NCBI GenBank assembly: GCA_963514005.1
Contig: OY740790.1
Location: 12,214,001 to 12,278,000 of the forward strand
Length of the DNA: 64,000 nucleotides
Direction of reading: 5' to 3'
DNA from: Raja brachyura
Lineage: Eukaryota
Shown one piece after another: positions 30,296-59,704 of this stretch. Under the pieces are notes generated by a model. The model was not told where the DNA came from, made no database searches, and saw nothing but the letters and a program-made list of their open reading frames with translations. The position numbers and the translations under genes are program-made. The first letter of the stretch is position 1, and the number at the start of each line of letters is the position of its first letter.

Positions 30296-31883
30296 TGAAA
30301 CCATAGAGAAAGACATAAAAAAGGAAAGAATATTCATTTAATTAAATTGTAGCATTAATGCCACTAATCACAGCGGAACAGCATGGGGTTTTAATGGGAA
30401 ACTAGTAATGAAATTCAGAATGTTATGGAGAGTGCCCAGATGATGAACCTTGGTTTAAGTCATCCTCTCCCCTGTAGCGCTGTAGGGATGGCAGCAGATT
30501 TCTTTGGTACCCCATTATATTTCAAAGGCATTCTTACAAGGAACCAAGGTGTCTGGTGATATAAATGGTATATACTTGGATAATAGTCATAGAGGCAGTT
30601 CCATGTAGGTTCGATTGCCCCAGGCAGCTAGTGAAGTGCGTGCTCTTGAAGTGCAGTTTAGTCGTAAAGGAGGAAATGTGGAAGCCAATTTTTCCAAAGC
30701 AAGCTCCCCAAACCCCATTTGGTAAAGGCACGATACAAGCTTCTATTCATATAGATTGAAGAATACATATTGTCCAGGGGCGGGAGAGAACCTCCCTGTT
30801 TTTCTTTTTATGGGGACACGAGTTCCTTTGCAACCAGCTGAACATGGAAACATAGAAAACAAGTGCAGGAGTAGGCCATTCGGCCCTTCGAGCCAGCACT
30901 GCCATTCAATATGATCATGGCTGATCATCCAAAATCAGTACCCCGCAGTATACATTTGAATAATAAATCAGCAGGCAGATGTTATCTTGAACAGCATAAC
31001 TCTAGGCCAACCTGGGGTAAATCTGTTGATTCTGGGTTTGTACATATTTTTTCTCATTGACTGATTGGGTTTGGTTCTGGTATATCGGTATCCGTTTATC
31101 ATTAGTTTTTCATAAAGAAGTGAAATAACATTGTTATGTGCGATTAAAGTTGCCAGGGCTAAACGGGACTTACTTCCAAGTGGTGGTATCAGCCTTCATG
31201 TGGACAGCAGCCTCGATGGCCGGTTATTTTCTGGGACCATGGCTGGAATGATTTCAGCCAATTGTCAAACTTTGGTTGGGAACATCGAGCTATGCTGTTT
31301 TATTCACTTAATATTAAAATGCTGCTTCATAAATGACCGCTTCATTTAAAACTGCTGCCCTCAAGCGTGTTGGAGAGAGGAAGCTGTTGCTTATTCTTTA
31401 AAAAAAAAACAGTGAAATGAAAATGTGGAATTTTCCACTTTCAAAATCCACTCCACTTTCAAAATCTATGTAGCATAGTTTGGGGGAAATTAAAGTATGT
31501 GTTGTACTTCAGTGATCTTGCCCGATTTTTGCAATGAATGCAGAAATGTTTGTAAACACATATGTCAGTACAATAGTGAAAGGATATTAATGGATTATTA
31601 AACATCTCATACTGAACAGTGAGGCGCTCGATGCGCTTGAACTGTCTGTACCGTAGAGTAGCAATCTGTGTGTCTGAGGCCAGGGAAGGGGTGTGTGATC
31701 ATGACAATCGTAAGACCTTGCTACTTATAACTTTCTACGTAATTTTAAACCTTTATAAAAGATTATCTGGATATTTTAGGTCACTCACACAGGGAAGACC
31801 CCAACCTTTTGTAAACCTTTTAATACCTTGAGATTTTACAAGAATATGTCATGTAGTAAACAGACTGCAAATACTCTTGTACT

Positions 31884-35840: not shown

Positions 35841-36645
35841 ATTTAGTCAGAGGGTGGTGAATCTGCGGAATTCATTGCCACAGACGGCTGTGGAGGCCAA
35901 AGCAATGGATATATTTAAGGCAGATTCTTGATCAGTACGGGTGTCAGAGGTTATGGGGAGAAGGCAGGAGAATGGGGTTAGGAGGGAGAGATGGATCAGC
36001 CATGATTGAATGGCGGAATAGACTCGATGGGCCGAATGGCGTAATTCTGCTCCTATCAGAATTCTGCTCCTATCAGCAAAAGGATTTGAGTATAGGAGCA
36101 GGGAGGTTCTACTGTAGTTGTACAGGGTTTTGGTGAGACCACACCTGGAGTATTGCATACAGTTTTGGTCTCCAAATCTGAGGAAAGACATTCTTGCCAT
36201 AGTTCACCAGAAGGTTCACCAGACTGATTCCTGGGATGTCAGGACTTTCATATGAGGAAAGACTGGATCGACTTGGCTTGTACTCGCTAGAATTTAGAAG
36301 ACTGAGGGGGGATCTTATAGAAATTTACAAAATTCTTAAGGGGTTGGACAGGCTGGATGCAGGAAGATTTTTCCCGATGTTGGGGAGATCCAGAACAAGG
36401 GGTCACAGTCTAAGGATAAGGGGGAATTCTCTGCCACAGAAGGTAGTTGAAGCCAGTTCATTGGCTATATTTAAGAGGGAGTTAGATGTGGCCCTTGTGG
36501 CTAAAGGGATCAGGGGGTATGGAGAGAAGGCAGGTACAGGATACTGAGTTGGATGATCAGCCATGATCATATTGAATGGCGGTGCAGGCTCGAAGGGCCA
36601 AATGGCCTACTCCTGCACCTATTTTCTATGTTTCTATGTTTCTAT
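35841..36645 (+). mobile_element. Two tandem CR1 LINE 3' fragments; the younger spans 36076-36645 with a (TTTCTATG)n tail
   Basis: [38 protein letters not shown]. Confidence 0.88.
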
Positions 36646-37474
36646 CACTTATGGCCTTATTTCGCACCTGGGCGGGATCAAGTGTAGAGACCGGTGTAAT
36701 TTGCTGATGTGTCACTCTTAGAGATAAGGTAAAGCTGGTCAGTTGACCCAATCTGCATCCAGCGGTCATGGCCAGCCTTCGATCTCATTCTTTCAATGAA
36801 TGAGTCAGGTTGCATCCGTAAATGTGCCAGCCTTGGCCATTATCCTCTAACAGGAACATGTTTCCCCTGTGCTCTTGCTAACTCACTTTTGAAAGCCTCC
36901 ACTTGCCGTATGTCCCTTTACCTGCAAAGAGTTCGACCTCATCGACCGCTGCAAATCCCAATTACACCTCCAAAATTGTCCTTGCCCCACTCTCGACTGC
37001 TCGCCGAGAGAGGGTTGGCAAGGTGTGTGGGTTGGCAGTATATTCATTCAAACTCGGCAACCCGCGGAGAAGCCATGTGTCCAATGCAAAATATCAAGCT
37101 TGCTTCAAAGCGATGAGGAAACGTTTGCAGCAAATCTAGATATTTTCACATCAAATAGAACTAAGCTGGGTGCCGTTCGTATTTAAATATCTTTTGGTTT
37201 GATTCTAACGTGCAAAACGAAGTCGAAAATACTCCGCCACTAAGACTAGTTGGCAAAGTACGACTTTCCCCTGCTCTCTGGGTCACGCAACCATTGAACT
37301 TCATTTTGGACAGATTTTGATCTTCGGATTGTAGAAAATGCGAGCGGTCTCGTGGGAACGGTCCACTTTCCATGGCTGAAATAAACAAAAGCGCCCCGAA
37401 ATCCCCAAACTGGAGCGCCACGTTAGACACGCCAGAGACAGCCAGGTACTTTCACACTGGAAGTGCCTGAGAAT

Positions 37475-41385: not shown

Positions 41386-43147
41386 AGTTCCAAACTAATC
41401 AGCCGAACCATACTTCCAGACTAATCATATTCATAGGCTGTGTAAGAACAGTTTCAGCCGTTTACAGGGGTGTGGTCAGAAGATTTGATTGGCAGCAGAT
41501 TCACTTTCCACTCTGTTTCTAATAGTATCGTAATTCTGGAAATAACCCTGTGGTCATGCACTTTCCTGTCATTGTTCAGTTCAGTTTTCAGCCCTGGTTT
41601 GAACTGTGAGAAATAAATCATATCTGCTGTCATAGTCAGGAGGTTGGCATTGCCTGAGTAGACCCATGAGAGGAAAACAATGAATCTGATCACAATCTTG
41701 AATAAGAAATTATGTTCACTAGAGGCCTGGCAAATCACAGTTTCACAAAGTTTTTAGAACAGCAAATGGCTCTGTTCTTCCTTTGTTTGGATGAGTCACT
41801 GAGACAAGATCATAAGGTCATAAGGTCAAGGAATAGGAGTAGTATTAGGCCATTCGGCCCATCAAGCCCACTCCACCATTCAATCATGGCTGATCTATCT
41901 CTCCCTCTTAACCCCATTCTCCTGCCTTCTCCCCATAACCTCTGACACACGTACTAATCACAAATCTATCTCTGCCTTAAAAATATCCACTGTCAGCCAC
42001 AACAGCCCTCCACAGGCAAATAATTCCACATATTCACCACGCAGCTCATTCCTTATGGTAAGAATCCAAGCACACCGAGTGGACATCTTTGCCTTTATCT
42101 ATTCAGCCAGTTACAAGTTACTGTCTCCGAGTGACAACCTAAAACGAGAAGTTACAACGGCAAAAAACTTCCAGTAATTTATCAAACGTTTAGTCTTTTA
42201 TAAATCCACATTGACTGCTGGATATTATTATATTATTATGTTTCCGCTCCCTTAGTATTAGATTCTACCATTTGTGCTGCGACTGATGTCAGACCATTTA
42301 GTTAACAGTTCCCTGTTTATTCTCCTCTTATTGATCACTGCTCTCACTCTCTCCTATTTGTCTGTGGGAACGGTTCCAGTATCTGTGGAATTTTGGAAGC
42401 TGCCAGCTGAGGCATCCACTATCTCCATGTCGACTTATTTCAAGAACCTGGCCTGCAGGTCATCAGGATTTATTCGCTTTCTGTGCCATTGATCTGCCTA
42501 ATACTACTTATAGCTAATGTTATTTATTCAAACTCCTTGTTCATTTGGCACTGCTTTTCCCGACTATTTCCATCTTCTTCTGTGAATATAACTACAAAAT
42601 ATTTCAGTCCTTTCCAATTCTCCCAATATAATTTACATGTGTAGGGAGGAACTGCAGATGCTGGTGAAAACCGAAGACAGACAAAATGTACATGTCTCAT
42701 CTGTAAAGTCGTTAACTTTGGCTAACATTTTCCTCTTCATATAACGACAGAAGTTTTAACAATGTATTTTTATATTTCTTGTTAAACCACCCATGTAACA
42801 CTGATCATGCCTTCCCCAAAAGAGGTCCCTGTGATCAAGAAACTTGAATCCCTGCCCACTGAACCAGTCCCTCAGCCACGCATTTATCCTCCACCTCATT
42901 CCATTTCTACTCTCAGTCACGTGGCACAGGCAGTAATCCTGAAATTGTTACTCTTTTGGTCCTTCTCCTTAACTTTCCCCCCAACTCCCTAAATTCTCCT
43001 TTCAGGACCTCTTCCCTTTTTCTGCCGATGTCATTGGTCATTTTGCATTAATCTATTTTCTCTATCCTTTTATATTTCTTGGTGTAGTTTGTAATTGTCC
43101 TTGAACTCAGGATTTTTTTCTGGCAACATTATAAACCCTTTTACATT

Positions 43148-43288: not shown

Positions 43289-44142
43289 ACTTTTCCATTG
43301 GTCAGCCACAGCTGGGCCACCTTCTCTATTGGTTTGACTCCATGTCCCATTTGTCTGCCTCACCCATTCTTATCTGCACCCATAGGATGATGCAACACTT
43401 GTTCCTATACCTTCTCCCTCACCACCGTCCAGGGCACCAAACAGCAGAGATTCACATGCACCCCCTCCAACCTTGTCTATTGCATTTGGTGCTCACAACG
43501 TGGCCTTCTTTACACTGGAGAGACTAAGCGTAGACGAGGTGAGCGCTTACACACTGACTGCAATGACCATCTTGAACTCGCAGTTTTATTTGCCAGAGGC
43601 CAGTGGGGATTACTATTGGAGGTACTCCAGCTCATCAACATCTTCTTGAGGCAGTTAAAGCAAAGCAGTAAATGACAGGGGAGTAGAATAGTCGAGTCTT
43701 TAAATTCCTTTGACGATGAATCCCTCCTCCCAAAAATCCCAGATAAATAAAATAAAGAAATAAAAGAAAACGTGATCCGGGTATTCAGAGGCTGAGGATA
43801 TACTTAATGAACTTCCTAAAGTAGCAAACAATCTTAAACAGAACTTCTACCTTACTTGTGTGCGGTCCAAATCTAATCTGGGTACGGACAACACTATGTG
43901 ATGACATACCAGCCTAAGGGTACATTTTACTTCGGAGTCACGTGAGTGACTACGTGAAGAAGCCCCGCCTGGCGCTGGATCGGCATTACGTCGACGCTAT
44001 CGGCAGAGAAAGAGCTGCAGAGCGCAGCTCCACACAGCGGTAGGGAACTGGCCCGCAGGTAAGAGAGTTTTCAAAATTTAGGGCAAGGTTCCAGAACTCC
44101 GTAGCCTGGTGGGTAAACCAGGAGGAGTTAGCAAAAAACAAA

Positions 44143-47100
44143 ATGGAGAAGGCCAAAAAACAGCGGGTAAAACGTGCGTCCCGGGCTGATGAGTCGGGAC
44201 AAGAGTTTATTGCGGAGCCGGTTCCGATACCGGTCGCCGTTGAAATACCCGTTAGTGAGGCTTTGACTGCTCCACAAACAGAAACTTTGGAGGAAAACCC
44301 AGTGCCTAAAAAATGTAAAAGAAAATCTGAAAGGCCTGTGGGTTCTGATGAATCTGATTCAGAAGGTCCAGAAAGAAAAGCCTTATGGCTCAGAATGGAC
44401 CAAATGGAGAAAATGCTCCTAACTATTATCAACCAAGGGTCTAAGAACCCAGAATATTCCCAGGCAGCCCCTGAGGGGGTTCCATATCAAGAATATGGTG
44501 CCAGTTTGAATTGGGAATTTGAAACTCCAGTGCCTGCGATTGGACTGGAGGAAGTCTCCTTTGAACAAGTTTCAGGAGTACCAGGGCTGTATGAGACAGA
44601 CCCTGAAAGTGGTGATTGCGGTCCGGAGTACACACCACAATACAATTATATGGATCCAGGTGTGCCTGATGTGGCACAAAGTTTTGCTATACCTGGAGGA
44701 GGCGGTGAGGCCATGGAAGATAACCTGGCGGCCAATATTAATTATATGGTCTCTCACCCGCTTCAAGAAGCTGTTATGGTTGAGACAGCAGAAATGTATA
44801 AAACACCTATCAATTGTGCCTCATTGAAGGTACCTACGGTGAATCCGGCTGTTTGGGCGCCAATGTCATCGATAATGCGGGCGCAGGAGATTCGATTTCA
44901 AAGAGTCCTCAAGCTGATTTCAGCTGGCATTACTGCATTTGGTAGACAAGTGGAAGGTTGTGGAATGACCATAGTGCAGAGACATATGTTGGCCTTATTT
45001 TGCAACTCATTTTTTGAGATAAATTGCATGAGGAAGATTGCCATTCGGCCTCTGTTACATCCAAGATTTGCAGGGTTGTGTAAACCAAGCAATGTTCAAA
45101 CTCCTGGTTATTTGTTCGGAGGGGATTTGTCTAAGCAAATTAAAGAAATGGATGAAGAGGCAAAGACTTTTGGTCGTATGAAACCCTTCAGCTTTGGCCA
45201 GAGATGGACTGGCTATATGAAAAGGGGATTTGATTTTGGAGCTGGTACAAGCCGAGGCAGGAGTATGATAAGGAAAAATTTCCAGCCAACACAGCCGAAT
45301 GTACGCCCATTCATTGGGAAAAGGAGATCATTTCGTCCAGTTGGAGAGGTACATAAACATTATCCTATTAAAGAGGAATGTTGGGATGAGCCACAGATTG
45401 GTGGTAGACTCCAAATGTTTTATAAGGAATGGGACAATATAACAGTTGATCGTGTTGTATTAGACACTGTGCTAGGATCTACCATTGATTTTGTGGAAGG
45501 TATGGATCCATTGGGACAGAATGAGCCTAGTCATTCTTTGATGTTCTCAGAGCTTGAGAAAATTCAAATTGACAAAGAGATTAAGAATTTGAGTAAAAAA
45601 GGAGTTATTGAGAAAACAGGAGAGGATCCACAACAATTTGTATCAAACATTTTCCCCAGACCAAAGAAAGATGGGGGTTGTAGGATCATTTTAGATCTCA
45701 CACTTCTGAATACATTTGTCCAGTATAAACATTTTAAAATTGACACATTCTACACTGCAATGCAGTTGGTATCAACAGGCTGTTATATGGCTACAATAGA
45801 TTTGAAGGATGCATATTATTCGGTCCCAATTCATCATAGTTTTCGCAGGTATTTAAAGTTTAAATGGATGGGACAGCTGTGGCAATACAAAGCTTTGCCT
45901 AATGGATTAAGGTCAGCACCTAGATTGTTCACTAAATTGTTAAAGCCAGCAGTTGCACTGCTAAGGGCACAAAAACACATCGTTATGGCTTATCTAGATG
46001 ACATTTTAATTGTCAATGCTAATCAGGAATCAGCTGAAAAATCAGTCTCAGCAACTATTAGCTTGTTTGAGAAGTTGGGTTTCCTGATCTATCCAACAAA
46101 ATCTAAGTTACAGCCATCCCAAACCATTGAATATCTGGGGTTTGTGATTAACTCAGTTACCATGTTGGTAACTTTACCAATGGATAAGGTGTTAGATTTG
46201 ACAAATGTGTGTCAAAACCTGATTAACAAACCTTATCCCTCCATCCGAGAGGTTGCCAAGGGTATTGGTAAATTGGTAGCAGCATTTCCAGCAGTAGAGT
46301 TTGCTCGTCTACATTACCAAAATCTTCAAAGGGCAAAAACTAAAGCGCTAATTCAGCGAGCAGGCCATTTTGATAGGCCAATGCAATTGCCTAAGGAAGC
46401 TTTATCAGAATTACATTGGTGGATTGAGAATGTTCCACAAGCTGCTAAGAACATTTTAGTTCATCAGCCAGTCGTGTTTTTACAAACTGACGCAAGTTCT
46501 CTCGGATGGGGGGCTACGGATAATGAGACCAGCTGTGGAGGCAGATGGGCTGTCCAAGAGGATTTGTTGCTCCAAACATATGGTATTAATTATTTGGAGC
46601 TACTGGGAGCATTTTATGGATTAAAAGCTTATTGCTCTTCATTAAAGGATTTGCATGTCCAAGTACAAATAGATAATACCACAGCTGTGGCATATATCAA
46701 TCACATGGGTGGTGTCAGATCAATATCATGTGATCATCTGGTAAACCAGATATGGCAATGGTGTATGGCAAAAAATATTTGGCTTTCAGCTATTTATCTC
46801 CCGGGGAGAGACAATGTTGTGGCAGACAAAAGATCACAAATATTTAAAGACAATACAGAATGGATGTTAAATCCACAAATTTTCAAAAATATTGTCAGTC
46901 GGTATGGAGTACCGGACATTGATCTGTTTGCATCTAGATTGAATCACCAATTGCCGAAATACGTGTCTTGGGAACACGATCCAGGGGCAGTAGCGGTGGA
47001 TGCTTTCTCGCTACACTGGGGGAATACGTTCTTTTATGCTTTTCCCCCATTCTGTCTCATTGGGCAATGTCTCAAGAAAATAGCGCAAGACGCTGCCAAA

Positions 47101-47274
47101 GGCATTTTGGTGGTGCCAAATTGGCCCACGCAGTCATGGTTCCCATTGATGCTAAAAATGATTATTGAACCATGTATGACAATTCCCAGTTGCGACTATC
47201 TGTTGACACAACCAGTAACAAAAGAAATTCATCCATTGCATGATCATATGAATTTGTTAATCTGCAGGTTCTGA
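44143..47274 (+). CDS. DIRS Gag-RT-RNase H-adenine-methyltransferase-like polyprotein, 1043 aa
   Basis: RT: KKDGG.R.ILDL, DLKDAY, LPNGL.SAP, YLDD. RNase H: TDAS, INYLEL, DNTTAV, N..AD..S. MTase-like: DLFAS..N, DAF..W, YAFPPF. Confidence 0.93.
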   Translation: MEKAKKQRVKRASRADESGQEFIAEPVPIPVAVEIPVSEALTAPQTETLEENPVPKKCKRKSERPVGSDESDSEGPERKALWLRMDQMEKMLLTIINQGSKNPEYSQAAPEGVPYQEYGASLNWEFETPVPAIGLEEVSFEQVSGVPGLYETDPESGDCGPEYTPQYNYMDPGVPDVAQSFAIPGGGGEAMEDNLAANINYMVSHPLQEAVMVETAEMYKTPINCASLKVPTVNPAVWAPMSSIMRAQEIRFQRVLKLISAGITAFGRQVEGCGMTIVQRHMLALFCNSFFEINCMRKIAIRPLLHPRFAGLCKPSNVQTPGYLFGGDLSKQIKEMDEEAKTFGRMKPFSFGQRWTGYMKRGFDFGAGTSRGRSMIRKNFQPTQPNVRPFIGKRRSFRPVGEVHKHYPIKEECWDEPQIGGRLQMFYKEWDNITVDRVVLDTVLGSTIDFVEGMDPLGQNEPSHSLMFSELEKIQIDKEIKNLSKKGVIEKTGEDPQQFVSNIFPRPKKDGGCRIILDLTLLNTFVQYKHFKIDTFYTAMQLVSTGCYMATIDLKDAYYSVPIHHSFRRYLKFKWMGQLWQYKALPNGLRSAPRLFTKLLKPAVALLRAQKHIVMAYLDDILIVNANQESAEKSVSATISLFEKLGFLIYPTKSKLQPSQTIEYLGFVINSVTMLVTLPMDKVLDLTNVCQNLINKPYPSIREVAKGIGKLVAAFPAVEFARLHYQNLQRAKTKALIQRAGHFDRPMQLPKEALSELHWWIENVPQAAKNILVHQPVVFLQTDASSLGWGATDNETSCGGRWAVQEDLLLQTYGINYLELLGAFYGLKAYCSSLKDLHVQVQIDNTTAVAYINHMGGVRSISCDHLVNQIWQWCMAKNIWLSAIYLPGRDNVVADKRSQIFKDNTEWMLNPQIFKNIVSRYGVPDIDLFASRLNHQLPKYVSWEHDPGAVAVDAFSLHWGNTFFYAFPPFCLIGQCLKKIAQDAAKGILVVPNWPTQSWFPLMLKMIIEPCMTIPSCDYLLTQPVTKEIHPLHDHMNLLICRF

Positions 47275-48242
47275 CCAGACCATTGCAAGAGTTTGAACTG
47301 TCGGACAGGACCATGGATGTTATAGATGCAGCTTGGAGGACTAGCACTAAAAAACAATATATGTCGCATATAAGGAAATGGGAAGCTTTTTGTACACAGT
47401 CAAAGATATCTTATCATACTGCAAACATTTCAAATGTATTGGAGTTCCTTGCTGGGTTACACTTTGATGAGCATTTGAGTTATAGTGCCATTAATTGTGC
47501 TCGGAGTGCATTGTCATCCTATTTAGGACAAAATTCGGATTGGGATTCAGTTGGGTCTCACCCATTAGTATCCCGATTCATGAAAGTTATTTTTAATAAA
47601 AATCCTCCCAAGCCCAGATATACAGAAATTTGGGATGTTAGCATTGTTCTCACTTTGCTTAAACAATGGACTCCAATTAATTCAATGTCTTTGCAGAAAT
47701 TAACATTCAAGGTGGTTATGTTAATGGCATTGGTATCAGCTCAAAGAGTACAAACTTTGCAATTGTTAAGGTTGGATTGCATGCATGTGAATACAGATAA
47801 CATTGTGTTTTATGTTTATGACTTGATCAAACAAAGCAGACCAGGAAGAACTGGAATGAAGGTAATGTTTAAAGCATATCCTGTTGATGAAACATTGTGT
47901 GTAGTTAAGCATTTAACTCAATACATTGAGGTAACCAAAAATCTCAGAGGTTCTGAGAAAGCGTTATTGATAACACACAAAAAAACACATACAAAAGTTT
48001 CAGTTCAAACCATTTCTAGATGGTTAAAACAGGTTTTGGGTCTAGCAGGAATAGACACTGATGTGTTTAAATCTCACTCCACTAGGGCAGCAGCTACGTC
48101 CGCAGCGAAGGTACAGGACGTACCACTCGATCAAATTTTAGAGGCCGCAGGGTGGTCTAGAGAAGAAACTTTTTCAAAGTTCTACAATAAACCTGTTGTC
48201 ACGGTGCCAGGATTTGGACACGCAGTACTGGGTTCTCTTTAA
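47268..48242 (+). CDS. DIRS tyrosine recombinase; first ATG at 47313, homology extends upstream to the acceptor at 47267/47268
   Basis: SAQRVQTL (R), SHSTR (HxxR), AGWS and TF.KFY (Y) catalytic motifs intact. Confidence 0.9.
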   Translation, partial: VLTRPLQEFELSDRTMDVIDAAWRTSTKKQYMSHIRKWEAFCTQSKISYHTANISNVLEFLAGLHFDEHLSYSAINCARSALSSYLGQNSDWDSVGSHPLVSRFMKVIFNKNPPKPRYTEIWDVSIVLTLLKQWTPINSMSLQKLTFKVVMLMALVSAQRVQTLQLLRLDCMHVNTDNIVFYVYDLIKQSRPGRTGMKVMFKAYPVDETLCVVKHLTQYIEVTKNLRGSEKALLITHKKTHTKVSVQTISRWLKQVLGLAGIDTDVFKSHSTRAAATSAAKVQDVPLDQILEAAGWSREETFSKFYNKPVVTVPGFGHAVLGSL

Positions 48243-49138
48243 ATGCTTGCTTTGTTTATATTATCGATTTATGTTACCATTGACATCATTTATCAATTAT
48301 TTTGTAATTTTCCCCTGCGATAGAGGGGTTATTATTAAAAAAGTTGTTCTTTTTATAATTAAAGGACTTATTACCTAAATTGTAACAATGTGTTAAAATA
48401 CTATTTACTCACTACTGTTTTGACTAAACAGAGTCGTATGAAATGAATTTACGACATAAAAAACACAGAGCTTTAAAATCTTCACGTAGTCACTCACGTG
48501 ACTCCGAAGTAAAATAGTGAGATTAACCAAGAACTTACCTGTTCGAAGTTTGATCTTTATTTTATGAGGAGTTACGATGAGGGATTACGTGCCCTCCACT
48601 CCCAACCCTCATAATGTAAATGATCTTCTGGTAGTTCTAGTCTATTTTGAGCCTTTCTATTTTACTCCGGCTATTGGTTCTGTGTTTTTCATGCCGCTGC
48701 TTTGAAGTATGCCGATCCAGCACCAGGCGGGGCTTCTTCACGTAATCCCTCATCGTAACTCCTCATAAAATAAAGATCAAACTTTGAACAGGTAAGTTCT
48801 CGTTTAATCTCACTATTGCATAAAAAACAGACACCCTTACATTTATCAGCCCATGTTTGATGCCCTTCTAGGTCTGGTTGCATGTAGGCGCGGATTGCTT
48901 CATTTTCAGAGGAGTCAACAATGCAATTGAATATTGTAGTGCCATGAGTGATAGTTCTCACTTCTGATATGTGGCTGTAGTCTTGCTGAGCTGTATGCAA
49001 AAATATTTCACTGTACCTGGTACATGTGACAATGAAGAAACTATTGAACCATTGAACCATTAACCTTATGATGTACCAGCTGAAGAGAGGTCGTCTTGGG
49101 ACACTGTCCTCTAATTCCTCATGTGCTTTGCCTGGAAT

Positions 49139-52100
49139 AATAGTAAGATTAAACGAGAACTTACCAGTTTGAAGTTTGATCTTTATTTTATGAGGAGTTA
49201 CGATGAGCGATTACGCGAAGAACCCTGCCTGTCGGTATGCGCGTCAATCTTCAAAGCAGCGGTGTGAAATCACAGAAAACACCAATTTAAATATTATAGT
49301 ACGATTATCTCTAAAACTACCAGATGAGCTTCATGATATGAGGGCTGGGAGCGGTGGGCACGTAATCCCTCATCGTAACTCCTCATAAAATAAAGATCAA
49401 ACTTCAAACTGGTAAGTTCTCATTTAATCTTACTATTTTACTTCGGAGTCATGCGAGTGATTCCATGAAGACTTTAAAGGTCTGTGATTTCATGCCGATC
49501 CAAATCCAGGCGTATCACACTGCAAGCAGTTGACTCAGGAGGAGTGAATTAGTAACAAATTGATTCATGATACTGATAAACATGTTAATGTTTTAATTCA
49601 CAACTAACAAAATATATACAATAGCAACTCCGCTCTCCCAGGGAGAAGCTATGAAACAAAATTTAACACAAATTTTGGACGAACACCCTGGATTCAATAA
49701 GCGGCTTGTTATACAACCTCTGAAAAGTCGATTCATTTAACCATCCTGCGGCCGCGAGGATGTGGTCTAGAGGGACGTCCATTGCCCTCGCCGCTGACGT
49801 CCATGTTGCCCTGGTGGAGTGAGATTTAAAGTTTTGAGTATTAACTCCTGCACATCCCAGGACTTGTTTCAGCCATCATGAGATGGTCTGAGATGACACT
49901 TGCTTATGTGGGTTTTTGTGGCTTATAAGTAGTGCTACCTCGGACCTTCTGAGGCTCAAGTGCGCACTACACACAGGCGTGAATCTGTGGGATAAGCTGA
50001 CAATACATGCTTGTATCCTGTCACCCCTGGTTTGCTCTGTTTGAGTAAGTCATAGATGTGAAAAGTAACGTCATTCTGTGATGACACCATCCTGTCCAGA
50101 CGCAGTTTGTGGAGAGTCTGAACCCTTTGGCTGATGTAAGCGCCATGAGCATGACCAATTTGAGGGTGATCCTTAGTAAGGACAATGATGTGGCTGTTCC
50201 CCATTGACGGAGCACCGCGAGTACCATGCTCACATCCCAGATTTGAGAGTACCTAGGCCTAGGACGATTGGAATTAAACACACCCTTCATGAATCTTGAT
50301 ATTAACAGGTGGGACCCTAAAGGCTGGAGATCTGACCCTCGGCACAAGTACGCTGACAGGGCACTCCTGGCACTGTTGATGGCACTGTAACTCAACCCTT
50401 CATTGGAGTGTAAGTGGGATGGGAATTCTAGCACATCTGGGATGGAAGCCATGTGATAAGTGATGTTCCCATGTAAGCAAAATTCCTCCCATTTCCTGAT
50501 ATGAGAGAAACATAGAAACATAGAAATTAGGTGCAGGAGTAGGCCATTCGGCACTTCGAGCCTGCACCGCCATTCAATGTGACCATGGCTGATCATCCAA
50601 CTCAGTATCCCGTACCTGCCTTCTCTTCATACCCTCTGATCCCCTTAGCCACAAGGGCCACATCTAACTCCCTCTTAAATATAGCCAATGATCTGGCCTC
50701 AACTACCCTCTGTGGCAGAGAGTTCCAGAGACCCACCACTCTCTGTGTGAAAAAAGTCCTTCTCATCTCGGTCCTAAAGGATTTCCCCCTTATCCTTAAG
50801 CTGTGACCCCTTGTCCTGGACCTCCCCAACATCGGGAACAATCTTCCTGCATCTAGCCTGTCCAACTCATTAAGAATTTTGTAAGTTTCTATAAGATCCC
50901 CTCTCAATCTCCTAAATTCTAGAGAGTATAAACCAAGTCTATCCAGTCTTTCTTCATAAGACAGTCCTGACATCCCAGGAATCAGTCTGGTGGACCTTCT
51001 CTGCACTCCCTCTATGGCAATGATGTCCTTCCTCAGATTTGGAGACCAGAACTGTACGCAATACTCCAGGTGTGGTCTCACCAAGACCCTATACAACTGA
51101 AGTAGAACCTCCCTGCTCCTATACTCAAATCCTTTTGCTATGAAAGCTAACATACCATTTGCTTTCTTCACTGCCTGCTGCACCTGCATGCCTACTTTCA
51201 ATGACTGGTGTACCATGACACCCAGGTCGCGCTGCATCTCCCCTTTTCCTAATCGGCCACCATTTAGATAATAGTCTGCTTTCCTGTTTTTGCCACCAAA
51301 GTGGATAACCTCACATTTATCCACATTATACTGCATCTGCCAAACATTTGCCCACTCACCCAGCCTATCCAAGTCACCTTGCAGTCTCCTAGCATCCTCC
51401 TCACAGCTAACACTGCCCCCCAGCTTAGTGTCATCCGCAAACTTGGAGATATTGCCTTCAATTCCCTCATCCAGATCATTAATGTATATTGTAAATAGCT
51501 GGGGTCCCAGCACTGAGCCTTGCGGAACCCCACTAGTCACTGCCTGCCATTGTGAAAAGGACCCGTTTACTCCTACTCTTTGCTAACTCACTGATAACTC
51601 AGCTGGAGAGGTATTGCCTTTTTGTGCTATCCCTCCAGGATGAAGTGATGGATCCACAGTCTGATTGGACAGTCCCCGACCCAGGTACGGCCTTTTTAAA
51701 ATCTGCAAATCAACAAATTTACACGAACATTCAATGGGTGTGGGTCCCCAGTCACAGGGTGCACCAATAAATGTATACGTTTTGGAACCAGCTCAATAGG
51801 GTGCGTGGTTATTTCTGAAATGAGTGGGAACCATGGCTGTGTAGGCCAGTCGGGCACTTCCAGAACCCCTGTGGCGGTGTCTTGCTTGATCTTAGTCAGA
51901 CACCGGCTGATGAGGCAGAAGGGGGGAAAAACATATAAAAACATTCCCCCCCCAGTGCAGTGAGAATGTGTTTACCGCCACTGCCCCAGGGTCTGGTTCC
52001 CATGAAACATACTTTGGTACCTGGTGATTAAGTCTGGATGCAAACAAATAGATATCTGGCATCCCATACCAAATGACAATTTTACCAAATACTTCACGAT

Positions 52101-54843
52101 TCAACATCCACTCGGTGTTATCGTTGAACTTGCGTGCCCTGGTGTCTGCCACCATATTGAGTCTGCCTGGCAAATAGACAGCTGAAATCCAAATATTCTT
52201 TTCTATGCACCAGTGCCAAATAGTGTTAGCCAATCCATCACATGATTTTGACTTGATTCCACCCATATGATTGACATACGCCACTGCCGTAGTGTTATCA
52301 ATCTGCAAATGAACATGTAAGTGATGCTTAGTGGTACAATAGTGATGCTTTGAGCCCATAGAACGCTCCTAACAGTTCTAAATAATTTATTCCATGTGAC
52401 TGGAGAATCTGTGCCTCATGCATATCCCATCTGCCTCCACAACTAGATCTGGTATCAGTAGCACCCCAACCTAGGGCACTGACATCAGTCTGTAAAATAA
52501 GTGATGGTGCTTTTGTCAAAATTGTGCCATAACAATTTAATATGTTTCTAATCCACCACTGTATCTCTGCGATGGCTTCAGATGGTAAGTGCATGGGCCG
52601 GTTGTAATGGTTTGCATGTATTCTCCGTGCCTGTACCTTTGCTCTGTAAATGCTGATAATGCAAAGGTCCATATTGGGCTGCTGGAAAGGCTGCTACCAA
52701 TTTACCAATTAAGCTCGCAACCTGTTTAATTGAAGGTGATTTTCCCTTTAAGAGGTTGACACGGCCTTCAATTAAATCTACTTTCTTGCTCTGGGGCAGA
52801 GTTACAGACATGTGATTGGAATCAACTGTGAAACCCAGATAGTCAATTATGTTATGTTAACAGGCACCAATTTCGATTTAACTGGGTGGACAATGAATGC
52901 TAGCCTCTGCACCATGAGTTGAACAGCCGAGACTGATAACTCAGCTTCGTCAAAGGTGTTTCCAATGATTAGAATGTCATCCAAATAGGCCATGATTATA
53001 TGGCCTTGTGACCGGAATAACCCAAGTACTGGTTTTAGCAATTTAGTAAATAGGCGAGGGGCTGAGGTTAATCCATTAGGTAGAGCTCGCATTTTAAAAT
53101 GTTGATACTGCACAAACGGTTTAAGTCCTGTTAAATCCAATATGATTCTACACCCACCATCCTTCTTTGGTCTAGGGAACACATTAGACACGAATTGATG
53201 GATCTAATAGACTGTTTTCTCAATTACTCCCTTGAGGCATAGTTTTGCTATTTCAGCTTGGATCATCAAATTCTCTTTTTGTGAGAAGATGAGTGCCCGT
53301 TTTTCGGTTTGTGCTGGGTGGGTGGACACAGGTTGGGAATAAATTCAATTTTGAACCCTTGAATACTCTGCAGTATAAACACATTTGAGGTTATTTTATA
53401 CCATTCTCCCAGAAACCTATGTAACCTTCCCCCAACTGGTAGGCAAGGCAATATGTTTCGACAAGAGCCAGACCCACCTACCTCCATGGTTACCGGTGCT
53501 CTTTGCCTGGTCCTGGGTTGTAAAGGTGTGTTTTCCCTTGCTCCTGCTGGGGAGCGCCAGTTGCGGACATTAAACGGTCGGCTTGGTCCTTGCTCAGCCC
53601 CGGTTTCCGCAAACCACTTATAGGGGTATTGCCTTCGGAGAGTTCTGTTGGTCACTGGCGCCTTGATGAGCTCTACGGTCTTGGCTTCATCGTCCAGCTC
53701 CTTTACCCTTTTGGCCAAGTCTTCTCCAAATAATCGATTCGGCAGCTGGACGGTGCCAGGCTTGCATAAGGCAGCAACCCTGGGATTAATGGTGGGGCGG
53801 ATGGCGCTCTTTCTGATACAATTAATCTCACATGTGCACATTGCACATAAGAGCCAGGACATCCTGCTGAACTTCAGTCAGGAGCCCACCATCCACCGAC
53901 CTACCAAAAGCCGTTATTTCAGATGCCAGCAGCTTGAGCACCCGCTGCAGTTTAATCTCCTGCGTTCGGATGCTTGCCCCCATATGGCCCCAAATGGCAT
54001 GATTGACTGTTGGCACCTTCAGCAATATACAGTTCTCGGAGGTCTCATACTTTCTGGCAGTAGTGTCCATGGCCAGCTCCTGGAGCTGGTGGGAGGCCAG
54101 GTAATTTATGCTGGCAGCCAGCTCCTCTCCAAGCGGCTCGCCAAAGTCTGTAGGGCTAGTGAACCTGGCTGCCTGGAATGGGACCTCTGGCACTTGCACC
54201 TCGTCCTGTGGGGCAGCCTCTATTGCTGAACCCTGTGAATCAGCGTCAGATTCCATCTGACCCAGTATACTTTCCTCGTCCTGGAGGAAGATACTTGGCA
54301 GCCCGGTAGGCACTGCTGGCGCGGGGTCTTGGAGAGGCCGCACTCTGGATGAAGCATCCTCTCCAACAGGAGCTCCATCCTGGATACCCATTCTGCGGTA
54401 TCCATTGTTAGGGTCGAACCCTCCCGGCCGGACTCGTCTGAGTCTATCGGCCGGACAGACTTTTGGGCAGCCTTACACCCCGCCGGCGTAGACACAGTGT
54501 TCTCCGACACCAAGTCTGTGGTCGTTGGTTTGACAACCAACGACTCCGTTGATTGATCTAGACGGCCGCCCGCTACCCGCTCTCCCGTGGGGTTGAGATA
54601 TTGTCGCACGGCTCGCCTCACTGTTCCGGATTTTTTCATGTTTGTACTTGTCCTCCTGCAACAAGAATTACCAAACGCAGAGACTTTGGAGAAGTTAAAC
54701 ACTTACCTGAGGCTTTTTAAACTTACCGCTGGAGAAGCGCTGCTCCTCCCAGCCAGTCCCTGCGCCATGTGTCAGACGTAATGACGTGCATGCCGACTGG
54801 CGGGGCTCTTCACGTAATCACTCACGTGACTCCGAAGTAAAAT
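49139..54843 (-). mobile_element. Second DIRS1-type element of a different family; decayed, carries a CR1 insertion
   Basis: Same terminal and ICR design (ICR about 49359-49470) with ATT ends; gag-pol fragments at 51696-54639 with frameshifts and a deletion of the RT DLKDAY region; YR remnant at about 49670-51702. Confidence 0.93.
50506..51583 (-). mobile_element. Young 5'-truncated CR1 LINE inserted in the YR gene of DIRS element 2
   Basis: Open 312-aa RT C-terminus (GVPQGSVLGP, KFADDTK); (TTTCTATG)n tail; splits YR between RQYLS and HIRKW. Confidence 0.92.
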
Positions 54844-57800
54844 TGACTTTCAACAACCACACCAACTTCTTGTGTGTGGGGAATGACACCAACTAATGGG
54901 CCATTTTCTTTGACATGAAATTAATTTGGCAACTTCATGCCCAGAGTAGGGGAATCGATGACCAGAGGACATAGGTTCAAGGTGAAGGGGAAAAGATTTA
55001 ATAGGAATCCGAGGGGTAACTTTTTCGCACAATGGGTGGTTGGTGTATGGAACAAGCTGTCAAAGGAGGTACTTGAGGCTGGGACAATCCCAACATTTAA
55101 GAAACAGTTAGACGGTACACAGATAGGACAGGTTTGGAGGGATAAGGACCAAGCGCAGGCAAGTGGGACTATTGTAGCTCGGACATTGTTGGCTGGTGTG
55201 GGCGAGTTTGGCCAAAGGGCCTGTTTCCACACGGTATCGCTCTGACTATGACTCTATGCCAACTTTATTAATGTCTTTGTGTATCTTTTATCACTTATCT
55301 CCTTTGATCTTAGTCGCACATTGTGTGGTACTTTTTAGAAAAATTCCGTTTTCTAAATACTTCCATCTCCACTCAATACTTTCCTGAAGCAGGAAATAAC
55401 AATTGGCTTCACAATTACCTGATGACCTGGAGGTCAAGAGGAGCAACAAAGTAGAACAAAGGGAAGAGACTTGGCAAATAAAGTACTATTCTGATTCTGA
55501 CTATTCTGATTCTGACCAGCTATTTGAAATTGAGATTGTGACAGGGTCCAGGGTAGAGGACGTTTCCTCTTGTGGGAGAATCTAGAACTAGTTTGCTATA
55601 ATTAATTGTCACCTGTACCAAGATAGAGCAAAAAGCTTTTTTGTTATGTACTATCCAGTCAGTGGAAAGACTATACATGATTACAAGAGCAACACAAAAT
55701 GCTGGAGTAAGTCAGAGGTACAGGCAACATCTCTGGAGAGAAGAATTGGGTGACGTTTCGGGTCGAAACACTTCTTCAGACTGCTCCTTCTCTCCAGAGA
55801 TGCTGCCTGTCCCGATGAGTTACTCCAGCATTTTGTGTCTATCTTCGGTTTAAACCAGCATCTGCAGTTCCTTCCTATACATGATTACAATCAAGCCGTC
55901 CACAATTTACAGATATGAGGCAATGGGAATAACGTTTAGTGCAAGATAGTCCAGTAAAGTCTGATTAAAGATAGTCCGAGGGTCTCCAATGAGTAGGTAG
56001 AGGGTAGGTAGGCCAGGACTGCTCTCTAGTTGGTGATAGGATGGCTCAGTTGCCTGATAACAGCCGAGATGAAACTGTCCCTAAATCTGGAGGTGTGCGT
56101 TTTTACATTTGTTCCTCTTGCCCTGGTGGGAGTGGAGAGATGAGGGAGTGAGTGAGACTTGTCATTGATTTAAAAAATAAGGGATTTTGCATTTAAAACA
56201 GAGATGGTGAAATACTTTCTGTGAGAGGTTTGTGCTTCTCAGACCGCACTTCCTCACAGTAGAAGTAGTCTTTAAATATTTTAAGGCAGAGATACATAAT
56301 AAGTATGGGGATGAAAACTTGCTGAAGGTGAATGGGAATGCAAAGTTGAAGTTGCGATTAGGTTGGCTAGGATATTATTGAATGCCAGAACAGGTTTAAG
56401 GAGCGAATGATCCTGGTGCTAATTCACATATTTGGTACAATAGCTGACCTGGTAAACGAACGGTCGCTGAGTCTACACTTTGTCTAGTCAATGTACAGGA
56501 GCCCATATTGGGAACATCTGATGCAGTAGATGACATTAGACGAGGTGCATGTGAAACTCTGTCTCACCTGTTAGGACAGGCGAGGCATCTAAATGGAGTC
56601 GAGGGAGGATGTATAAGGACAGGTGGTACATCTGCCATTGTTGGAGAAAGTACCTGGGGAGGGGGGGATTTGGCCGGGAAGGGATGAGTGAACCAAGGAG
56701 TTGTGGAGGGAGCAGTCTCCACAGAAGGCAGAAAGGGGTGGAGATGGGAACATGTGAGTTGTGGTGGGATCACACTGGAGGTGATGGAAATGTCAGAGGA
56801 TGATGTGAGGCTGCTGGGGTGAGAGGTGAGGTAAATATAAATAACCCATTGACCTATTCAGCACAGGACAGGTATGAAGACCCTTCATAGGTTACAGATG
56901 AGAACATGTCCTTCATATAATGACCCTTTTGGCTTTCGACATATCAGCACAATTCCTATCCTGGATTTGCCTTGCTTTCCACTTTATTAGACTGTTGTGC
57001 TTCCTGGATAATGACAGATACAGTGATAAACCAAACATTTTTACTGAGCCACAAAATTGACTAAAAATTCCACTGATCCACTTGAATTATATTTACTCAG
57101 ATTTTACATTTGATACTTACATTATCCAACACTGGACAGTCATCCTCTGCTGCTCGGTAAGCAAATGATTCTTAACAATGTGGACTAGTCTGTGTATTAC
57201 AAGTAGACCCTATTCTGTGTCAATATAGAAATAGTAATTCCCCATGAACAATGGAAAGTGTGTACAAAATTACAGGTATTAGATCATAAAATTAGTCTTT
57301 TCAAATCCAAACAGCTTCTGCTAATGGCACCTGTTTGTGACACCTGTTTGTGCAGATGCTGGTTTAAACTGAATAGACAATAGACAATAGGTGCAGGAGT
57401 AGGCCATTCGGCCCTTCGAGCCAGCACCGCCATTCAACTTGATCATGGCTGTCCCGCTGTCAGCTAGATAGACAGAAAATGCTGGAGTAACTCAGCAAGA
57501 CAGGCAGCATCTCTGGAGGCAAGGAATGGGTGACGTCTGAAGAAGGGCCTCGACCCGAAACATTACCCATTCCATCTCTCCAGAGATGCTGCCTGTCCCG
57601 TTCTGCTATTGGCACTTGTTGGCAGCATTCATATTGAATCCCTTCCAATTCTCGTTAGCAAAATTGGAAAAGTTGATAAAGAATTTATTTTAATGTGCAC
57701 GTAATCCTAATGGGAATCAGTGTGATTTTTCTACATTATTCATCAGCACTGCCATGTGTTTCCTGTGCAAAAACAATTAATCTTTGCGAGTTTGTTGTGT

Positions 57801-59370
57801 CTGCAGTAGTCAGCTTGAAACTAAAACTAGCATTTCAAAAGATAATATTTCACCCGTAATGGTGGGTGTATGTAACAAGCTGCCAGAGGAGATAGTTGAT
57901 GCTGGGACTTTCCCAATGTTTAAGAGACAGTTAGATAGGTACATGGATAGGTCCGGTTGGACCAAGCATGGGCAGGTGGGACTAGTGTAGCTGGGACATG
58001 TCGGCCGGTGTGGGCAAGTTGGGCCGAAGGGCCTGTTTCCACATTGTATCATTCTATGACTATGACATCTCTAGTATTACATGGACAGCATCTAAAGTTT
58101 CATATAATCCCCAAGCCATTTTTAAATCCCATTTCAGGTTTGGTTGGGCTGGGGTGATAGGTTCTGATTCTGCCTGGATTCAGCGAATTGTACTATGCAC
58201 ACAGGGATCCCATAAATCATTGTTATTGCTGAAAGATATTTCCTGCTCTAGGCTTTCACGACTTAATTCACGACCTTTTTTACTCGTGGACATTTTTCAT
58301 CAGGCTAGAAAAACGCCCTGACCTACTTGATGCCACAAGTACCTACGACTAGCATCACGACTAGCATCAGGCCCTTTTGGTTATATAATTTTGTTTGATT
58401 TCCGAGTAAATCTTTAAAAGAACAGTTGAGACATTGGTGGAATTGAGGTAAAACAATTTATTCTGGACCATTTACTCCGCCAAATATCCTTTCCCTTACA
58501 CTTCCTGTGTTTTACCAAGGGAAACAAGTGAATGTCTTTTATAACTTTATTTCTCGGAAAATCCATGCGGTAATTCAATTCAGCAAATCCCACACATCCT
58601 CTCATTCGCAAGCGAAACAGAATAGGGCCAAGAACGTTGAATTTCCAAGTCAAGGCATTTTTCAGTTGTAATGAAATGAAATTTTTGTTGATTTAATTTG
58701 GCTGAGGCTCTAATTGTCTTAAATTTAGCTGAATAACATTTCCATCTTTTCTGTGAAATTATGAAAAACTGTTCCATTTTGCATCAGTGTGATGGTAACA
58801 GAAAATAAGATTATACAACTGGAGAACTTCCTGCATTTCATTTACAAGCTTATCTTTCTTCCTTTGTTTAAGTAGGATTGTTTTCTGCGTAGATTATCTT
58901 TTTATCGTGAATTTCACTGTTTTCCTATGAATCCAGACATATATAAAAAAATGTTAAAAATGTTCAAAAAGGATAATGTGATGCCAAATGTCAGCAAAGT
59001 TGACATATGCCAATTCAGGAAAATCCACCACTCTTCCTTATTTGTTAATATCACCCCATGTTGAGGAGCAAGTTCTTCCTCAGTTAATGGCTTTTTAAAA
59101 CTTAATACTCAAGATGCGGACAACTTTACAAATACATTAATTGAGTCATACAGCATGGACACAGGAGACATGAGAGTCTGCTGATGCTGGGGTCAGGGTG
59201 AAATATTGAACTGCTGGTTGAATTTGGTCGGTCAGAGAGCATCTGTGGAAGAATGTGGCAAATTGAGACACTTCCATCTGGAGCATGGAAGCAGGACCTT
59301 TGGCCCACTCTTTGAATACACTCTTGCTATCAACTACCCATTTATACTAATCCTATATTAATATATTTTC

Positions 59371-59704
59371 CAGAACAAGGGGTCACAGTCTAAGGATAAG
59401 GGGGAATTCCTTTAGGACCGAGATGAGGAAAACATTCTTTACACAGAGAGTGGTGAGTCTCTGGAATTCTATTAAATATAGCCAATGAACTGGCCACAGA
59501 AGGTAGTTGAGGCCAGTTCATTGGCTATATTTAAGAGGGCTTTACATGTGGCACTTGTGGCTAAAGGGATCAGGGGGTATGGAGAGAAGGCAGGTACGGG
59601 ATACTGAGTTGGATGATCAGCCATGATCACATTGAATGGCGGTGCAGGCTCGAAGGGCCGAATGGCCTACTCCTGCACCTATTTTTCTATGTTTCTATGT
59701 TTCT
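59371..59704 (+). mobile_element. CR1 3' fragment with internal rearrangement
   Basis: Same family as 36076-36645; (TTTCTATG)n tail. Confidence 0.8.

Follow-up and report, generated by a model that had tools for sequence, protein, structure and literature searches.

How does a retrotransposon of the DIRS1-like type obtain its tyrosine recombinase (YR), when the recombinase frame lies behind pol and, as is often the case in DIRS elements, has no usable start codon? The question is raised by a stretch of 64,000 nt from the Raja brachyura contig OY740790.1 (positions 12,214,001-12,278,000; referred to as the window, and all coordinates are positions within it), which contains two such elements. 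Element 1 (43924-48817, plus strand) has inverted termini, two internal complementary regions (ICRs), a single gag-pol open reading frame (ORF) of 1043 aa and a YR frame of 324 aa, which is -1 relative to pol and begins at the CAG ending at 47267. Element 2 (54843-49139, minus strand) is built on the same plan and is a dead copy, with a 1-nt deletion just after the GTG at its YR start position, an inserted long interspersed nuclear element (LINE) in YR and frameshifts in pol. The two belong to different DIRS families and are arranged tail to tail with 321 nt between them; both frames of element 1 are open and it has copies which are 98-99% identical.

Judged from genomic DNA alone, it is likely that both elements express the recombinase by splicing out pol as one GT-AG intron. 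The intron of about 1.9 kb would start at a donor just past the boundary of gag and pol (45349; 53481 on the minus strand) and end at an acceptor within the last codons of pol (47267; 51703), and its removal would put YR into the reading frame otherwise held by pol. Unspliced RNA would be translated into Gag-Pol and would also be the genome, while spliced RNA would give a Gag-YR fusion, read straight through in families such as those of elements 1 and 2 where gag-pol is a single ORF. A YR start codon and a leader ATG would both be unneeded. The features concerned are as follows (a slash marks the predicted splice point).

44143..47274, plus strand: gag-pol ORF of element 1, 1043 aa, with RVT_1 at aa 507-669 and the pol stop at 47272-47274
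45346..45354, plus strand: third donor (D3) of element 1, GAG/GTACAT (GT 45349), which follows 402 codons of gag in phase 0 and is a weak site in the family
45349..47267, plus strand: predicted 1919-nt intron of element 1, essentially the whole of pol, proposed from the homologous GT...AG segment missing in a related family
47245..47267, plus strand: acceptor region of element 1, ending in TGCAG and overlapping the last pol codons
47268..48242, plus strand: YR exon of element 1, 324 aa, with a Phage_integrase match, the HSTR motif at aa 270 and ATG 47313 as its 16th codon (index 15)
53476..53484, minus strand: third donor of element 2, GAG/GTAGGT (GT 53481), in phase 0 in the gag-pol frame
51703..53481, minus strand: putative intron spanning pol in element 2, its length of 1779 nt being that of a decayed copy
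49696..51702, minus strand: YR region of element 2, broken by the 1-nt deletion, frameshifts and the LINE insertion (about 50508-51605)

DIRS elements are abundant in this genome, with 8,697 matches to one degenerate pol motif and a further 4,626 to one YR start. The sample comprised 20 copies from the family of each element, together with 80 pol-motif matches taken from the first 100 listed; the 20 omitted rows repeat motif variants already well represented, and five of the fetched copies are without the motif. The resulting 115 copies and the two window elements fall into 27 clusters at 85% identity, mostly 60-84% identical to one another where alignable, and since the clusters are related their counts do not represent independent events. 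A protein search of the genome returned family 1 alone. The named homologues with the highest scores come from a skate, which suits a cartilaginous fish as the host. Six family-1 matches of equal score and ORF length, spaced by about 80-260 kb at 27.8-28.4 Mb of C25 (G000), are probably a segmental or tandem duplication. Splice sites were scored with an approximate weight matrix.

The initial annotation had pointed to an acceptor-like sequence at the end of pol in both elements, where YR similarity was said to start in phase 0. Both points hold: the CAG ends at 47267 (exon from 47268) and at 51703 on the minus strand (exon from 51702), and the translations VLTRPLQEFELSDRTMD and ILKRPYLGRGLSNQTVD begin there in phase 0. 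The conservation check it had called for is also positive, as the CAG is kept in 74 of 82 copies, with cluster majorities of 26/27 for C and 25/27 each for A and G, and YR-type codon periodicity begins directly after it. The acceptor is moderately strong, ranking 7th of 304 AGs in element 1 and 13th of 324 in element 2 (top 2-4%). The pol Cys codon at the acceptor is TGC in 23/23 clusters as against 48/140 at six control columns. It had been allowed that the CAG might merely reflect the codons for the pol residues I-C-R and be absent from relatives; it is conserved, and codon statistics do not separate a codon need from an acceptor. Taken together, the acceptor at the end of pol is probably real. 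All three copies of cluster 4 (L118, L136 and L140) have lost the CAG (CAA or CAC), with an AG one base later in two of them, and may be dead copies or may have a shifted acceptor.

The third donor, AG/GTR, is located 45-54 nt before the start of reverse transcriptase (RT) homology. It stands in phase 0 with the YR/pol frame in 60 of the 75 copies with a locatable start of RT homology (copies without one were left out, and the 60 include a frameshifted copy in which an adjacent site was counted) and in 15/16 clusters, as compared to 9/738 pol windows; in the sixteenth cluster the site is AAG/GTAGG, moved by a deletion. The linker around it is rich in indels, and the preceding codon is GAG, CAG or AAG, so that the amino acid varies while the AG is kept. 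Control columns for Glu, Gln or Lys end in G throughout in 0/32 cases, and control Val columns end in a purine throughout in 3/20. Conservation of this donor goes beyond codon need; the YAG acceptor at the other end of pol is conserved and inseparable from pol codons by statistics.

Related genomic copies lack exactly the segment between two such sites. A junction search from the donor side gave 11 matches, two of which join the end of gag straight to YR codon 0, the remaining nine being five DIRS copies with point changes or other deletions and four unrelated sequences. The gag-end/YR-start junction has 88 exact matches in the genome, and 40 of 40 scored BLAST matches to the region span it. 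At all 12 inspected loci the join is at YR codon 0 and at the identical base; the YR frame is still open at four of these loci. The pol-containing parent subfamily (480 matches, YR 94-95% identical) holds GTAAGG...TTGCAG in the segment of about 1.9 kb that is missing; the donor of 18 fetched parents is GTAAGG in 16 and TT in one, with the gag end absent from one, and TGCAG is at the acceptor in 18/18. Eight copies of a larger sister family have GTGAGG at the donor. Exact removal of a GT...AG segment is thus seen in DNA copies of a related family, and the junction is one of 29,610 possible deletions of at least 1 kb with a 4-nt microhomology and one of 151 that are in frame near both ends. The 16 pol-less rows split into two clades in the gag tree, parted by well-supported pol-containing branches, and a single pol-less clade is rejected by the approximately unbiased (AU) test (p-AU 2.6e-64 for gag and 1.7e-6 for YR). 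The gag and YR trees were rooted at the midpoint with two sister-family rows included, and 13 rows were left out (six duplicates, six extra outgroup copies and one without the gag end).

The pol-less copies would then derive from spliced RNA, which would retain both termini and the ICRs and, as this family suggests, be copied occasionally; elements 1 and 2 would be spliced alike. RT acting in trans has been reported for DIRS-1 in the excerpted text of PMC7192593, and copying of a pol-less RNA by RT supplied in trans is in line with that activity. The pol-less copies L224-L233 diverge from the parent between about nt 211 and 663, and a 5' terminus was found within 2.9 kb in one of the ten.

Several observations weigh against splicing of pol. 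The evidence for it is drawn from genomic DNA. At the acceptor, one of the six control Cys columns is likewise invariant, AGR for Arg is as fixed at 5/8 control columns and 4/34 control Ile/Val columns end in a pyrimidine throughout. The third donor of element 1 is weak (score 5.6), and related copies have GTTCAA, GTGCAA or GTCCAA in its place. The pol-less family is different from the window families, its YR being about 57% identical to that of element 1, and searches of the latter and of cluster 13, with roughly 1300-1700 copies each in range by our estimate, found no pol-less copies: in the family of element 1 one search gave two pol-containing matches and another ten matches, none joined to YR; that of element 2 and neighbouring families gave one, pol-containing, with a query that misses donors ending in CAG; and cluster 13 gave none. 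The gag and YR trees disagree, which indicates that recombination is active, so that two origins of pol loss are indicated rather than proven. Moreover, the junction has a 4-nt AGGT microhomology, and together with the tree conflict this means that recombination could have spread one deletion.

A reading without any splicing draws on the microhomology, on the tree conflict and on the failure to find pol-less copies in the other families searched. The splice-like motifs would reflect protein or RNA-structure constraint, the pol-less family would have arisen by template switching at the microhomology, and YR would be made from an internal promoter or a non-AUG start. In agreement with this, most clusters have ATG, GTG, ATT, ATA or ATC as YR codon 15, set in an ACN-NTN-G context, and the first leader donor of cluster 13 lies within hairpins with compensatory changes. 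However, the deletion falls exactly on two sites which had been predicted beforehand from other families, pol appears to have been lost on two lineages with differing flanking bases, the AG/GTR of the donor is kept while the amino acids change, and YR codons 3-14 look translated (see below). We consider this explanation quite unlikely.

Splicing of pol also differs from what the initial annotation had proposed, namely an RNA like that of retroviral env in which a donor in the leader is joined to the YR acceptor and translation of YR starts at a leader ATG or at ATG 47313. The leader features are listed here.

44037..44045, plus strand: first leader donor (D1) of element 1 (GT 44040), differing among clusters and often within a predicted hairpin
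44056..44064, plus strand: second leader donor (D2) of element 1, CAG/GTAAGA (GT 44059), strong and nearly invariant over clusters
54727..54768, minus strand: leader ATG of element 2 and the 14 codons up to D1, a family state (11/11 leader-bearing copies)
54701..54729, minus strand: leader donors of element 2, D1 (54726) and D2 (54706)
54656..54670, minus strand: acceptor-like site of element 2 just 5' of the gag ATG (54639), which scores higher than any other AG in the element and lies 71 nt from D1 and 51 nt from D2

The sites themselves are as described: donor-like GTs are found at 44040 and 44059 on the plus strand and at 54726 and 54706 on the minus strand, the ATG at 54768 opens 14 codons that end in phase 0 at donor 54726, and element 1 has no ATG before its gag ATG at 44143 and carries the YR ATG at 47313 in 21/21 family-1 rows. 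D2 is the strongest and most conserved donor: of the 77 copies that include a 5' end, 68 have a strong donor of this type (score at least 9) at nt 122-146, as do 16/20 clusters, compared with 3/740 pol windows, while D1 is found in 55/77. GTAGGG at D1 of element 1 is a private variant, 18 of 19 other leader-bearing copies having GTAAGG. The in-frame leader ATG, at -42, is kept in all 11 leader-bearing copies of element 2's family (20 fetched, nine without a leader). It also speaks for a leader donor that in the clade of element 1 a weak third donor is accompanied by ACCATGG at YR codon 15, with a good acceptor before gag usually missing. By analogy with retroviruses, a leader-to-YR RNA might be without the packaging signal and therefore leave no genomic copies. 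The leader (nt 60-146 in L079, L127 and L137; 43984-44070 in the window) folds into two or three hairpins, and in the D1 stem of cluster 13 pairing is kept through changes on both sides.

The annotation had further suggested that the two families compensate for each other's start codons. This holds for the families of elements 1 and 2 and fails in other clusters. In copy L126 of cluster 15 gag-pol is open over 1053 codons and YR over 328, but there is no in-frame leader ATG and the first YR Met is codon 87; clusters 6 and 17 likewise lack both an in-frame leader ATG and an early YR ATG, clusters 4, 5 and 7 have both a leader ATG and a YR ATG, and in cluster 13 the first YR Met is usually codon 104. 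An env-like RNA calls for a leader donor and an in-frame first AUG in every family, and clusters 6, 15 and 17 do not provide this. With two ATGs and two donors, moreover, an in-frame pair is likely by chance. The codons before ATG 47313 also appear to be read: in two internal-ATG groups of four copies each, variation over YR codons 3-14 at positions 1/2/3 is 0.12/0.12/0.29 and 0.08/0.08/0.36. These codons are probably translated, and because they vary chiefly at third positions ATG 47313 is probably not the main start; in element 1's family the gag frame is then the only possible supplier of the upstream codons.

The leader donors, furthermore, have a nearer partner than the YR acceptor, since an acceptor is present just before the gag ATG in 13/20 clusters. 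It is often the best AG of the element and lies 51-57 nt from D2 and 71-90 nt from D1 (element 2, 54656-54726; L116, L114, L145, L134, L121 and L078). A short leader intron from D1 or D2 to this acceptor is possible; a search for genomic copies without it gave no matches, with a query that fits a rarer family (0/80 sampled copies). In L230, the only pol-less copy with a recovered leader, the leader donor and acceptor are both still present, unspliced. We also considered a donor a few codons inside gag and rejected it, as most family-2 copies have GC there.

Leader-to-YR joins were not met in genomic copies of the families searched. One junction search gave four matches, three pol-containing and one unrelated; two further searches gave none each, one of the queries fitting a rarer family (0/80 sampled copies); and a later one gave two matches, both variants of the known pol-less junction. 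The first three of these searches were blind to third-donor joins. Of the env-like proposal, therefore, use of the acceptor is supported, and the leader donor as its partner is not the best explanation. We regard it as unlikely as the principal route, while a secondary leader-to-YR RNA may conceivably exist, especially in element 1's clade with its weak third donor.

Homologues of other animals bear on the same point. RefSeq isoforms of one sea-urchin locus begin with MLQVMRQ (X1) and MRQ (X2). As far as protein ends can tell, this would be expected if a non-coding exon were joined to the homologous Q/V, and it hints that the homologous acceptor is used there; the observation is also compatible with a leader donor. 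NCBI gene models of sea urchin and brittle star that join to the YR codon (P0124, P0128, P0033, P0159 and P0060) were set aside as likely prediction artefacts, because several of them skip only a few codons. YR codons -2/-1 of homologues are L-Q, or often M-S or M-P (63/120 proteins with enough N-terminus). Among the 52 homologues with an internal position, Met is found in 0/15 rows with Q and in 18/37 others (Fisher p 0.0008, rows not independent), which suggests two entry routes to YR across animals.

The short pol/YR overlap could in principle be crossed without splicing, by -1 ribosomal frameshifting or by termination and reinitiation. YR does lie in the -1 frame; in 26/27 clusters the pol stop follows the acceptor by two codons, and the invariant TGC also keeps the YR frame free of a TAG stop. 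At codon -2 the elements have CTG or TTG, together with a purine at -3, and Met is found at that codon in many invertebrate homologues; in element 2's family AAATTTG is in phase in 16/17 copies. Against these routes, the -1 frame is closed 8 codons upstream in 26/26 clusters and 5 codons upstream in 7/27, and no canonical heptamer is seen in 25/27 clusters, being present only in cluster 18 (16/17 copies) and in one copy of cluster 19. A textbook TTTTTTA is in phase at gag/pol in clusters 9, 10, 11, 13 and 25 and serves as a positive control for the slippery site absent from pol/YR. An ATG at codon -2, one silent change away, occurs in 0/27 clusters, and a UGGGA motif upstream in 2/115 copies. 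Both routes would also leave the third donor and the pol-less family unexplained, and we judge YR expression by either of these translational routes to be very improbable.

Gag and pol are arranged in two ways. Clusters 3, 5, 7, 15 and 18 have a single gag-pol ORF; clusters 9, 10, 11, 13 and 25 have separate ORFs with the TTTTTTA in -1 phase, followed in most by a GC-rich stem (L127, L137, L079, L114, L116 and L078). In the families with separate ORFs, splicing of pol would give Gag-YR through the predicted -1 frameshift at TTTTTTA, or from an ATG that precedes the donor by two codons. Among 38 longer homologues none is annotated as a clean Gag-YR fusion, which is a weak test. In eleven gene-caller homologues an ORF of 923-1356 aa ends in YR and shows no similarity to pol, which agrees with the long-overlap type, whose YR frame runs across pol, as described in the excerpted text of PMC3266345.

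The two elements are themselves ordinary DIRS1-like retrotransposons of the short-overlap type, as judged from their sequence, with gag, RT and YR ORFs, inverted terminal repeats, two ICRs overlapping on a 3-bp junction, and NTT ends. An identity as Ngaro was considered and rejected, as their termini are inverted repeats with ICRs and not split direct repeats. Element 1 matches RVT_1 (E 5.9e-20, aa 507-669) and Phage_integrase (E 1.2e-09). No Pfam family matches its gag, which was identified from its position and from its resemblance to the N-terminal part of sea-urchin models. The end of pol has only a sub-threshold PCIF1_WW match (E 0.0038, aa 901-982), and homologues carry PF17917 and PF05869, which we presume to represent the RNase H (RH) and methyltransferase (MT) domains. 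The remaining features are these.

43924..43986, plus strand: left inverted terminal repeat of element 1, starting with ATT
48479..48591, plus strand: internal complementary region of element 1, 37 + 79 nt sharing AAT
48709..48817, plus strand: right terminus of element 1, ending in ATT, with AATAAA at 48769
54775..54843, minus strand: left inverted terminal repeat of element 2
49139..49490, minus strand: internal complementary region and right terminus of element 2

Just past the AATAAA (48769), at 48790-48797, the right extension of element 1 contains a donor-like AGGTAAGT that is complementary to a stretch of the ICR near 48533-48542 and might function either in polyadenylation, as a downstream poly(A) element, or as a U1 site. 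The LINE fragment in the YR of element 2 (about 50508-51605, minus strand) has a short tandem tail at its end and repeated CTCTC on its flanks, and related pieces are found in the window at 30841-30945, 35848-36647, 41834-41945, 57373-57451 and 59369-59704.

Retroviruses (for env) and Ty1/copia elements use an unspliced genome RNA together with a spliced subgenomic RNA. The scheme proposed here would share with them the unspliced genome, a singly spliced RNA and a moderate acceptor overlapping the end of pol; it would differ in that the intron is pol alone and the product is a Gag-recombinase fusion, rather than Env or Gag alone.

Closer relatives are the DIRS1-like elements without a long ORF overlap, such as LgDIRS1, LgDIRS3 and AcaDIRS1, which are given in Table 3 of PMC3266345. 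These have gag, RT/RH/MT (RH and MT being putative in the window elements) and YR, inverted termini, ICRs of 37 + 79 nt, ATT ends with an AAT junction, the HSTR motif and a short pol/YR overlap in common with the window elements, and the excerpted text of that paper describes no route of YR expression for them. In the present case pol is flanked by a conserved pair of GT and AG sites and exactly that segment is missing from a derived family, and in elements 1 and 2 gag-pol is one ORF. According to the same excerpts a long overlap is found in half of 28 DIRS1-like elements. There too, entry into the YR frame precedes most of pol; these elements keep it open across pol, whereas the window elements would splice pol out, and the long-overlap elements may thus solve the same expression problem through their open YR frame. 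In Ngaro, YR overlaps the RT/RH end slightly in the -1 frame, and a frameshift, the only proposal for YR expression that we met in the excerpted literature, was put forward by Poulter and Butler 2015, as quoted in PMC13003380. In contrast to the split direct repeats of Ngaro, the window elements have inverted repeats with ICRs and no shared slippery site at pol/YR. No description of YR splicing was found in the excerpted DIRS literature searched, which included PMC7192593, PMC13003380, PMC9210276, PMC3266345, PMC4157794, PMC6681497, PMC3783388 and PMC8547959; the main reviews (Poulter and Goodwin 2005, Poulter and Butler 2015) and the Repbase notes were outside that search.

What appears to be new in these otherwise ordinary elements is the scheme by which pol would be treated as an intron. 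A splice that skips pol would be one mechanism for all families examined. We lean, cautiously, towards the wider view that short-overlap DIRS1-like elements alternate their enzymes by splicing, placing either RT or the recombinase behind Gag, and that the spliced RNA can found gag-YR families; such splicing would stand in for the long YR overlap of other DIRS elements, and elements of echinoderms and further invertebrates that have YTG-CAG at the start of YR may use it as well. The pol-less family indicates that such an RNA can be copied by RT supplied in trans. A Gag-recombinase fusion, if true, would carry the integration enzyme into the particle.

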